Shown: positions 881 through 6,856 of the stretch, piece after piece
Layout of the letters: every line of letters starts with the position of its first letter
Numbering within the stretch: position 1 is the first letter of the stretch
Assembly: GCA_027031765.1 (NCBI GenBank)
Contig: JALVPN010000200.1
Coordinates: 1 to 9,188, forward strand
Direction of reading: 5' to 3'
Source: Promethearchaeota archaeon
GTDB lineage: Archaea > Asgardarchaeota > Thorarchaeia > Thorarchaeales > Thorarchaeaceae
Length of the DNA stretch: 9,188 bases
Notes under the pieces: model-generated
The model's input: only the letters and a program-made list of their open reading frames with translations
Told to the model about the DNA's origin: nothing
Databases searched by the model: none
Translations under genes and position numbers: made by a program

Positions 881-1441
881 GTGACAAAGATCGAGTACCT
901 GATGGTCTACACTCATGGCGGCCTCCCTATCTACAGCAAATGTTTCGGACACTTCTGCCAGACCGCATTCAAGAACCCCGAGTTGTTGACCGGCCTACTT
1001 TCCGCCCTCGAGTCAATCCCTCCGACCCTTGGTGACGGCCTGTCTCTTGAAGCCGTGAAGATGGGCTACACGACAATGCGGTTCTCAAAGGTCATGCCCG
1101 GTGGTCAGTCCGTCGTGATCGGGCTGTCTGAGGACGACCTTGCCACGGCGGAGGCCGTGTTCAATGGTGTCAAGCAGCTGTTCGAGCTTGACAAGTTCAA
1201 AGACGTAGACTGGGGTTACGTCCGCCGTGATATCGTGGACGCGTTCACCCAGGAGCTGGTCGACAGGGTACTTGTGGACGTAATGCACGAGAGGGGTGGC
1301 TTCCACGACGAGTGCCCCTTGGGTGACATGTGCCCGATGCACACGCGGGCCGACACTGCGGACAGCCGTGGGATCTGGAGTATCATCCGGTCAAAGTATG
1401 ACGAGTTGCGGCGCAGGATGCGGGCAAAAATGGGGGAGTGA
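881..1441 (+). CDS. Longin-fold-like protein (Asgard eukaryotic-signature type) with C-terminal Cys/His extension, 186 aa; alternative GTG starts at 872 and 860
   Basis: Segment order fits the longin beta-beta-alpha-beta-beta-beta-alpha-alpha fold: IEYLMVYT-HGG-LPIYSKCF, NPELLTGLLSALESI, LEAVKM, TMRFSKV, SVVIGLS, LATAEAVFNGVKQLF, VDAFTQELVDRVL. The N-terminus resembles the 'I..l.I...gGl.iy.k.f' start of TRAPP/AP-sigma-type longins. GGTG at 869-872 could be an RBS for 881. Recognised by eye only. Confidence 0.72.
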   Translation: MTKIEYLMVYTHGGLPIYSKCFGHFCQTAFKNPELLTGLLSALESIPPTLGDGLSLEAVKMGYTTMRFSKVMPGGQSVVIGLSEDDLATAEAVFNGVKQLFELDKFKDVDWGYVRRDIVDAFTQELVDRVLVDVMHERGGFHDECPLGDMCPMHTRADTADSRGIWSIIRSKYDELRRRMRAKMGE

Positions 1442-1515: not shown

Positions 1516-3288
1516 TCAGAGCACCTCAAAGGCGACAATCCTGTACTCGTCGTCCATCTGCTGGAGCACGGCGTGGAAGCCGTCGCCAACACGTACAGAC
1601 AGCAGCTCGTACCAGTCATCAAGAGGCATCCACTCCCTCGTGCCCTCAATCCACTCGTACGTGGAGTTGTCTGTCCGGAGGACAATGTGGGTGTCACCCT
1701 CGTACACGTAGGAGCTGATATTGAGGACGGTTGCACTGAGCTCCACGGTACCTGTTGAGGGGTGGAGTGCATCCCTCACGGTCTGGACGTACCCCTCACG
1801 CACCTGTCTCACAAGGACCTCCCCCGTGACCGTGCCCCCACGTGTGAGCAGGTACTTTATCGTGGGGTCTTGCGCGTCGGCGATGGCGAAGGCGTGGAGC
1901 CGGATGTCAGTGATATAGTACTCTTCTGCGTCCGAGTCATAGTAGCCGTCGTACCAGTAGATTGGGCAGTACCATGCGTAGCGCATGACCCCCGGTGCTA
2001 TCTCGACCGGGTACAGCAGCGGCATGGCCCCAAAGTACGACCCGGAGGTCGGGTTCGGGAGCCCCTTTATGACCTCGTTGGTTGCAGCCTCACCGCTGAT
2101 CAGTGTTCCATTCGGAAAGGTGTGGAAGAATATCCCATCACGAGTGGCACGCATGATCCCGCTCAGGGTCAGGCTCGTTGACTCCGGTGGGTTCACCGCT
2201 ACAAGTGCCTCGACCCGCCCGTTGTCGGGGTTGATTATGTACCTCGTGTCCTCCGTCATCTCGAGCCTGTCCCTTGACGGCTGGACGACCCACAGGAAGC
2301 CCCCTGCGAACAGGTCGAAGCCGTCACCGCGTCTGTAGGCGCCCCACCTGTTGACCTGGCGTTCCAGCCACTCTTCACTGTAGACCTGTGAAACCCACGT
2401 TGGCGTTTCCTCTATGGTCGCATATCTCCTGACAGTGCCGTTCGAGCAGTATATCACCGGGCCCAGTGGCCGTTCCACCAGGTCCCAACCAATACTGGTC
2501 CTTGTCTGGATGTATACAAGGTTCCCCGCGGGGTCCCATGTCGGGTAGGCATACTCGTACAGCTCTGTCATGTCATTGAGGTAGTTCCTGAAGTGTATGT
2601 TCTGGTCCCAGAACAGGCCCTCCCCGGGCATCGTTGTCGGGATGTCCTCTATCACTTCTATCATCGCGGGGTCGTTCGCATCGACGACAACGAGGCTCTG
2701 GATGTAGTTCTCGGCCAGCACATTGGTGGAGACGACCACGCAGACCCAGACCAGCCGCCCATTCCGTGTCGTTATGTGGGTCGCGGCCACCTCGACATTG
2801 GAGCCTATCCCTGCAAAGTACTGTCTCGCAACAAAGGCCGCGTACTCGCCGGTGACCAGTCGTACCATGTTGTCTGGTATCGGACTGTTGAACAGTGGCT
2901 CGTCGGTCACCGTGATGAACGTGTCCACTGACTCGGCATTGGAGAGGCCTGATGTCCAGACAGCGATGCTCGTGAATGTCGGCAGTGTGACAATCATGAC
3001 CATTGCCACGCACATCACCGGGGTCTTGAAGTGCCTCAGGGAGGGTGGTCTCTTGCGTGGCATCCCGCTTATCAACAGCAGTACCATCCATCCATAGGCA
3101 AGCCCTACCACAGCCCACGGCAGTGTGGTCATTGTGGCCACAGTGGTCAGGGCCCAGACCAGCACCGCCCACAGCAACCTCAACGGCAACCAACGGATCA
3201 GCCGGCCAAAGCTCAGCATCCCGTCCTGATACGGGAACGGCATGCTGTACACGACAATGCAGACGAGGAGAAACAGTAGCATGTTCAA
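1516..3288 (-). CDS. Uncharacterised membrane-anchored protein, 590 aa: about 4 N-terminal TM helices and a large extracytoplasmic domain
   Basis: Long ORF with a TTG start 7 nt after GGAGG (3300..3296); an in-frame ATG at 3282 is an alternative. The first ~112 aa are hydrophobic, with a basic loop (PRKRPPSLRHFK) before the last TM. Four N-x-S/T sequons in the soluble part (NGT twice, NIS, NST). Confidence 0.88.
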   Translation of the reverse strand: MNMLLFLLVCIVVYSMPFPYQDGMLSFGRLIRWLPLRLLWAVLVWALTTVATMTTLPWAVVGLAYGWMVLLLISGMPRKRPPSLRHFKTPVMCVAMVMIVTLPTFTSIAVWTSGLSNAESVDTFITVTDEPLFNSPIPDNMVRLVTGEYAAFVARQYFAGIGSNVEVAATHITTRNGRLVWVCVVVSTNVLAENYIQSLVVVDANDPAMIEVIEDIPTTMPGEGLFWDQNIHFRNYLNDMTELYEYAYPTWDPAGNLVYIQTRTSIGWDLVERPLGPVIYCSNGTVRRYATIEETPTWVSQVYSEEWLERQVNRWGAYRRGDGFDLFAGGFLWVVQPSRDRLEMTEDTRYIINPDNGRVEALVAVNPPESTSLTLSGIMRATRDGIFFHTFPNGTLISGEAATNEVIKGLPNPTSGSYFGAMPLLYPVEIAPGVMRYAWYCPIYWYDGYYDSDAEEYYITDIRLHAFAIADAQDPTIKYLLTRGGTVTGEVLVRQVREGYVQTVRDALHPSTGTVELSATVLNISSYVYEGDTHIVLRTDNSTYEWIEGTREWMPLDDWYELLSVRVGDGFHAVLQQMDDEYRIVAFEVL

Positions 3289-6499: not shown

Positions 6500-6832
6500 C
6501 TAGTAGTTCCCAAGCCACCCGAGGTCATTCCCGTGGTCGTCGATGATACTCACCACTGTGTCTACCCGCTCGCCGTCGACGTACCGTGTCTTGCACCTGA
6601 TAGTGAACTCCCTCCCACACCTTTCACAGCGCACACGCCAGTCCTCGACCACAGGTTCCAGTCCGTGCCCCTGCAGCTCCTCCTCCGGTGTACGGGTCAC
6701 ACCGAGTAGGCTGAGTTCCTTCCCGTCACACGCGTATGTGCACTCCTTCAGTGGTATTGGCTCCATACCCCTCCTACCGAGGGGCACGAACACCTTGTCT
6801 GGTAGTTCATCAAGGCTCCTCTGTCCGTTCAC
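6500..6832 (-). CDS. Small hypothetical protein with putative zinc-ribbon (C-x3-C ... C-x2-C), 110 aa; alternative GTG starts at 6841 and 6850
   Basis: ORF fills the gap between leuB and the divergent promoter region, and its TAG stop overlaps the leuB RBS. AGGTG (6843..6839) lies 6 nt before GTG 6832. Contains CTYAC, CERC and one further Cys. Confidence 0.78.
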   Translation of the reverse strand: MNGQRSLDELPDKVFVPLGRRGMEPIPLKECTYACDGKELSLLGVTRTPEEELQGHGLEPVVEDWRVRCERCGREFTIRCKTRYVDGERVDTVVSIIDDHGNDLGWLGNY

Positions 6833-6856
6833 TGACCACACCTGTGGCACCTAGAC

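Follow-up and report, generated by a model that had tools for sequence, protein, structure and literature searches.

Four cysteines of a longin-fold protein encoded in the window (the whole 9,188-nucleotide stretch of archaeal DNA analyzed here) are, on balance, the probable ligands of a putative Zn(Cys)4 clamp, which would pin a C-terminal extension to a longin core of the Mon1/Fuzzy type and which may be redox-labile. We propose that C28 and C33 together with C152 and C158 would provide a tetrahedral site for a single metal ion, with Zn(II) as the likeliest candidate, and that this metal clamp would staple the C-terminal extension, with its conserved amphipathic basic helix, onto the longin core. 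For this the four Cys residues would meet in space, and the His residues would be non-obligatory ligands. A metal- or redox-responsive longin had been described in the sequence-only reading of the window as unfamiliar among the characterized longins. This impression is shared by the literature searched, in which no description of such a protein and no report of a metal site in any longin was found.

The gene of interest (881..1441, forward strand) was delimited from the list of open reading frames, the translation and the N-termini of the homologues. The maximal open reading frame extends from a GTG at 860 to position 1441 of the forward strand and encodes 193 amino acids. The start codon is likely to be GTG 881, which gives a protein of probably 186 amino acids, since the N-termini of the homologues align to the residues encoded from this codon; a GGTG is located about 9 nt upstream of it. 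The residue numbers used here (C28, C158 and others) are counted from GTG 860. Translation of 860-1441 places the only Cys residues of the protein at positions 28, 33, 152 and 158, with codons at 941-943, 956-958, 1313-1315 and 1331-1333, and H149 and H161 at 1304-1306 and 1340-1342, respectively. This confirms the coordinates and the count of only four Cys that had been read from the sequence. The window protein (P0001) has no match in Pfam at E<=1 and none in an NCBIfam search. When the PDB was searched with the sequence profiles A1 and A3, only chance matches came up, for example interferon and spike.

The fold of the protein is evident from structure prediction. An AF2 model built from 41 homologues (mean pLDDT 78, pTM 0.78) contains the strands 11-17, 23-28, 63-68, 71-76 and 84-89 and, in the core, the helices 31-51, 94-108 and 123-143. 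This strand-strand-helix-strand-strand-strand-helix-helix topology with its five-stranded sheet is that of the longin superfamily. The best Foldseek matches to the model are AP sigma, sedlin, Ykt6, VAMP7 and Sec22b, and the top 50 are mostly longin domains, together with some roadblock/LC7 chains. Exhaustive comparison with VIA-align gave Z scores of 9.0 for synbindin, 8.9 for sedlin, 8.3 for SRX, 7.9 for both VAMP7 and Sec22, 7.6 for CPLANE and 6.8 for Mon1-Ccz1. All the longin matches, from synbindin to Mon1-Ccz1, cover the model residues 5-147, and ESM Atlas searches agree with the longin fold. The early description of the protein as longin-like is therefore borne out by the AF2 topology, Foldseek and VIA-align, and the longin core comprises residues 10-147 (887..1300, forward strand).

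The five-strand, three-helix fold is common to the window protein, the first longin domain of Mon1, Fuzzy and HPS1, synbindin/TRAPPC4, sedlin/TRAPPC2, SRX, VAMP7, Sec22b and AP sigma (Z 6.8-9.0). The helix-1 motif LL[ST]GFL[ST]A is likewise common to the window protein and other Asgard longins. Among the relatives, P0081 scores 27.1 bits against PF19036 (Fuz_longin_1; gathering cut-off 26.1 bits), P0115 and P0072 score under the cut-off, and two proteins of the sister family discussed below, P0199 and P0200, carry a precomputed PF19036 annotation. Judged from the model, the gene product is likely to be a free-standing protein with a longin fold of the type seen in the first longin domain of Mon1/Fuzzy. 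Unlike PF19036 members and eukaryotic longins, it continues into an additional tail with a helix (residues 148-193) and possesses a conserved four-ligand Cys/His site. A tri-longin Rab GEF (Mon1-Ccz1, Fuzzy-Inturned, HPS1-HPS4) was considered and rejected, since the window protein consists of one longin core and a 46-residue tail within 193 amino acids. Identity as a longin SNARE (Ykt6, VAMP7, Sec22) was rejected as well: the protein has no synaptobrevin/SNARE Pfam match, and its tail runs from a Cys loop into a basic helix of 20 residues.

The putative ligands form two pairs. The first one, C28-x4-C33 (CFGHFC; 941..958, forward strand), is located where strand 2 passes into helix 1. The second one, C152-x5-C158 with the semi-conserved H161 (CPLGDMCPMH; 1313..1342, forward strand), lies in the loop behind the final helix of the longin core. 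The modeled strand 23-28 and helix 123-143 agree with the earlier placement of the clusters right after beta2 and just after the last longin helix. The window protein has 62 homologues at E<=1e-3, of which the best full-length ones are hypothetical proteins of Thorarchaeota with 45-60% identity. A further set of relatives, 22-45% identical and from Heimdallarchaeota, Hodarchaeales and Heimdall LC_2, came from an all-against-library HMMER search. The Cys-cluster longin family is found in Thorarchaeota and in Heimdall/Hodarchaeales; among 400 Asgard genomes, those with full-length matches belong to the family of the window (39/85) and to four others. The genome to which the window belongs contains one full copy and three weaker longin paralogues.

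The counts of conservation cover about 145 distinct homologues, the most divergent of them 22% identical. Both C28 and C33 are present in 145/147 and C158 in 140/142, while C152 is kept in 126/141 and is replaced by His in nine. These four are the best-kept positions across the Thor and Heimdall homologues at 22-60% identity. In an alignment of 35 sequences with a mean column identity of 28%, the only invariant columns are G21, C28, C33 and C158. G155 is kept in 120/136, P159 in 110/142 and P153 in 61/126. H161 is kept in 80/142, with Cys in its place in 10, H31 in 4/147 and H149 in 8/142. Because H31 and H149 are unconserved, they are not regarded as ligands. The metal site that had been drawn from two distant Cys/His clusters thus loses these two residues, including the H149 that opened its H-x2-C-x5-C-x2-H cluster, and H161 is only semi-conserved. 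Its four Cys are retained: the two pairs are conserved together, and the exchange of their ligands fits a shared site.

C-x4-C and at least two Cys/His residues of the tail occur together in 133 of the 134 sequences that span both regions. The sole exception, P0042, has lost both C33 and C158. On the strength of these alignments, the four-Cys pattern is far more than chance. That the arrangement is fortuitous or specific to a lineage, with no joint function, is hardly credible given four near-invariant Cys across two Asgard classes at 22-60% identity and the loss of two of them together in P0042. Very improbable as well is the idea that heme binds transiently to the two Cys-Pro dipeptides of the tail, which would then be heme-regulatory motifs. 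The CP dipeptide does occur twice, a His is found three residues past the second Cys and P159 is present in 110/142 homologues, but P153 is kept in just 61/126 and H161 in 80/142. A heme-binding role would also leave unexplained the invariant N-terminal C-x4-C and the C2H2 site of the sister family.

The ligands of the tail come in several forms. The form C-x(2-8)-C (class A) is found in 113 sequences, with the spacing x5 in 101/113 and a range of 2-8. The form H-x3-C-x2-C (class B) is found in eight sequences, joined by two with H-x4-C-x2-C. His with one Cys (H..C) occurs in seven sequences and C-x-C-x3-C in five. At least four Cys/His ligands are kept in 133/134 sequences as C4, C3H or C2H2 variants, a degree of ligand conservation consistent with a Zn(Cys)4-type site. 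In the Cys-free longin paralogues of the window's genome, a gap of four residues falls exactly at the position of C-x4-C.

A related set of ligands was observed in a sister family, the loci of which were picked from the weaker genome matches by rank of E-value and not by motif. In 19 of the 20 fetched loci, longins of about 156 amino acids were found with C-x5-C-x2-[HRN]-P-[DE]-H at the strand 2-helix 1 junction and no Cys in the tail; an example is encoded at L072:393-863 on the reverse strand, and others are among L058, L064-L080, L082 and L083. An independent homology search that started from one sister longin retrieved 58 proteins from Heimdall/Hodarchaeales. C-x5-C-x2-H-x2-H is present in 56/58 of them, and 54/58 contain just two Cys in total. 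The sister tails carry an [LM]-G-D loop, which MAFFT aligns to the L-G-D between C152 and C158 of the window protein, and in this family too the loop is followed by a basic W-containing C-terminal helix. The two families (P0153 and P0156 exemplify the sister family) share the loop position of the first two Cys. They differ in that all four ligands of the sister family are local (C2H2), with none of the tail Cys, whereas the window family would complete its site with Cys from the tail. The sister family is not in Pfam as such. It is placed on a long branch with 100% support in a quick maximum-likelihood tree, which is provisional, has long branches and places generic longins unreliably. As aligned, the same position on the predicted longin surface carries a candidate four-ligand Cys/His set in two related families.

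The ligand exchange in the tail, the local C2H2 set of the sister family and the gap in the Cys-free paralogues are the reasons why one tetrahedral site, most likely Zn, is proposed. Interchange between Cys and His (C4, C3H, C2H2) is often seen at Zn sites and would be out of the ordinary for Fe-S clusters. Fe-S had been put forward earlier as an alternative to Zn; nothing was found in its favor over Zn, and the Cys/His interchange with the C2H2 sister favors Zn. Iron more generally is an unlikely occupant. The four Cys would then form a rubredoxin-like Fe(Cys)4 center or a [2Fe-2S]/[4Fe-4S] cluster, making the longin an electron-transfer or O2/NO-sensing module. Such a role would suit anaerobic organisms, four Cys of which two are followed by Pro, a C-x5-C-x2-H reminiscent of the final three ligands in the cluster motif of IscR, and relatives that adjoin genes for rubredoxin, rubrerythrin and rubredoxin reductase. 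It does not suit homologues in which Cys is freely swapped for His, a C2H2 sister family, a tail spacing that varies from 2 to 8 or a dispensable H161, and the window protein contains no canonical Fe-S motif (C-x2-C-x2-C type) and no match in Pfam or NCBIfam.

The likeness of the second cluster to the tail of CCCH zinc fingers, which the sequence-only reading had pointed out, holds in part. The window protein shares the C-x2-G-x2-C loop followed by a His. The finger (C-x7-8-C-x5-C-x3-H in a unit of about 25 residues) was nevertheless rejected, as no Cys is in range upstream, the protein has no more of the motif than C-x5-C-x2-H, and Pfam gives no zf-CCCH match. The His spacing is x3 in the CCCH finger and x2 in the window protein, where the His is dispensable and two of the ligands are about 120 residues distant.

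The second Cys cluster sits in a 46-residue add-on beyond the canonical longin domain. The add-on contains an amphipathic basic helix, which the AF2 model places at residues 172-191 (1373..1432, forward strand), starting at W173. The helix has a hydrophobic moment of about 0.5 and a net charge of +4 to +5, and W173 is kept in 126/138. The pLDDT of the tail is 77-87 as against 49 for a surface loop, with 82-87 over residues 141-160, and the model has a predicted bridge of two residues, 162-163. In VIA-align, the model matches full-length closed Ykt6 (6j74_C; Z 7.0, 149 residues) along its entire length, from residue 9 to 191. The model suggests that the tail is folded back on the longin core. 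The likeness to the closed conformation of Ykt6 (6j74, 3kyq) consists in this whole-length alignment, which includes the C-terminal helix of the model. In Ykt6 the fold-back is held by the lipidated C-terminal Cys and the SNARE helix, whereas here the putative metal site would be the holder, and the tail of the window protein has no sequence homology to that of Ykt6. Prediction of a homodimer, with two copies of the protein and two Zn, gave scores of 0.00 and 0.03 (mark 0.42).

A further extension of the C-terminus was seen in the Heimdall proteins P0068, P0078, P0084, P0090, P0104 and P0130, in which a hydrophobic aromatic stretch is followed by a polybasic run. From its sequence, this extension looks like a membrane-binding tail.

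Several relatives of the window protein are linked to redox proteins. In the representatives P0098, P0115 and P0116, which belong to three lineages, the Cys-longin is fused to an AhpC/TSA 1-Cys BCP peroxiredoxin (Prx), annotated in the sources as 'peroxiredoxin Q/BCP'. The fused Prx domains have kept the peroxidatic Cys, and the resolving Cys at +5 is absent. No description of longin-peroxiredoxin fusions was found in the literature searched. The three fusions do not group together in the provisional quick tree, which fits more than one fusion event or repeated fission. An operon in a closed Heimdall genome (L038:4886-10528) begins with genes for rubrerythrin, nitroreductase, rubredoxin and a 182-aa Cys-longin, and continues with a Cys-longin::Prx fusion, a TrxR-like flavoprotein and a second pyridine-nucleotide disulfide oxidoreductase (Pyr_redox_2). 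The cluster recurs in two more genomes of the same genus (L060, L061) with some gene orientations changed. The class A protein P0152, which belongs to a clade adjoining the Thor clade in the quick tree, is encoded in an oxidative-stress island (L058:1-9577) with genes for rubrerythrins, an Lrp regulator, a 1-Cys Prx, ferritin, rubredoxin reductase, rubredoxin, a flavodiiron protein and BCP. The island also holds an acyl-CoA dehydrogenase gene, and a C2H2 sister longin is encoded at L058:11254-11745.

These associations might be taken to mean that no metal is bound at all and that the Cys pairs are redox dithiols, forming disulfides and serving as the resolving or reducing partner, or as the acceptor in an oxidation relay, of the peroxiredoxin. 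The absence of a resolving Cys at +5 in the fused domains would fit such a function, as would the TrxR-like gene that follows the fusion, the lack of any thioredoxin Pfam family among the called neighbors and the C-P-x-C motif of the class B tails. We consider it improbable, however, because the third position can have His in place of Cys, no such disulfides can form in the C2H2 sister family, the Thor proteins lack both the fusion and a neighboring Prx, and longin folds are not known to act as thiol oxidoreductases. The C4/C3H/C2H2 interchange at the site is incompatible with a purely disulfide role.

With Zn as the preferred metal of the site, the genomic context of the relatives makes a redox-labile Zn-thiolate switch in the Cys-longins plausible. 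Oxidation of the all-thiolate site would release Zn together with the tail, as in known Zn-thiolate redox switches, and we speculate that the released state has an altered binding to membranes or small GTPases. Such a switch is known from the zinc-binding anti-sigma factors (ZAS), for example RsrA of Streptomyces coelicolor, of which H-x3-C-x2-C is the signature (PMC3177212, PMC4960319, PMC2877774). The class B longins share with RsrA the exact H-x3-C-x2-C with an upstream Cys, a parallel of motif and not homology, and their genes are tied to those of Prx and TrxR-like proteins. The logic of RsrA, in which oxidation frees Zn and alters partner binding, is proposed for the longin by analogy. 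A ZAS domain was rejected for the window protein itself, which has C-x5-C-x2-H in a longin fold, with H-x3-C-x2-C being confined to the class B relatives. ZAS is a helical anti-sigma domain, whereas the window protein is a longin with no sigma factor involved.

The redox-responsive longin imagined in the sequence-only reading therefore finds backing in the Prx fusions and the oxidative-stress clusters of the relatives, but not in the surroundings of the window's own gene. The redox-switch reading rests on relatives, since the window gene and its Thor orthologues have no redox neighbors. A more specific version has a rather low probability: the Cys-longin would be a Zn-thiolate peroxide/redox switch to which Prx, fused in Heimdall/Hodarchaeales and free in Thor, relays oxidation, so that Zn would be lost, the tail with its amphipathic basic helix freed and the binding to membranes or small GTPases altered.

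The neighbors of the window gene are metabolic. This gene and at least 24 Thor orthologues are located between an acyl-CoA dehydrogenase gene and the convergent gene of a 590-aa membrane protein, which is followed by LeuD/C/B. In the window, this predicted membrane protein is encoded at 1516-3288 on the reverse strand, convergent to the longin gene, and has no Pfam or NCBIfam match. At 24 or more loci in Thor, with 47-63% identity, it is paired with the longin. Neither this pairing nor the order acyl-CoA dehydrogenase, longin, 590-aa protein is kept outside Thor, and the other Heimdall copies of the longin gene have unrelated neighbors. The conserved Thor gene order may be inherited synteny rather than functional linkage. 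Of about 18 contexts, 6 have a small GTPase gene at a distance of 3-8 kb. This proximity was not counted as evidence because Asgard genomes are rich in GTPases and the frequency is not clearly above background.

Two further features of these regions are recorded here. In two Thor relatives, an Arf-family GTPase of 293-300 amino acids is encoded about 5 kb upstream of the longin orthologue (L001:191-1072 and L002:2589-3491) and precedes several small proteins that match nothing in Pfam; L001 also encodes a 465-aa protein with only faint Pfam matches of coiled-coil type. The equivalent region falls off the 9.2-kb contig of the window. Within the window, a 116-aa open reading frame upstream of leuB (6500-6850, reverse strand) contains two Cys pairs and gives weak Pfam matches to IBR_1 and CpXC (E 0.01-0.14). 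Its product is probably a small protein of the zinc-ribbon kind.

In eukaryotes, membrane traffic and the regulation of small GTPases have longin domains among their core components, and many such domains are encoded in Asgard archaea. A crystal structure of a Lokiarchaeota longin domain is available in the PDB (8yqg), and no biochemically characterized Asgard longin was found in the literature searched. The conserved putative metal site provides an experimentally tractable handle on one Asgard longin family. If the site is only structural, it still gives a clean definition of a new subfamily that is missing from Pfam. The Prx fusions and the O2/ROS-defense clusters of the Heimdall group hint that redox chemistry became linked to a regulatory fold of the eukaryotic type in the lineage nearest to the eukaryotes. 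If the Cys-longins were indeed peroxide/redox switches, they would represent a redox-gated regulator of the trafficking type that predates the eukaryotes.
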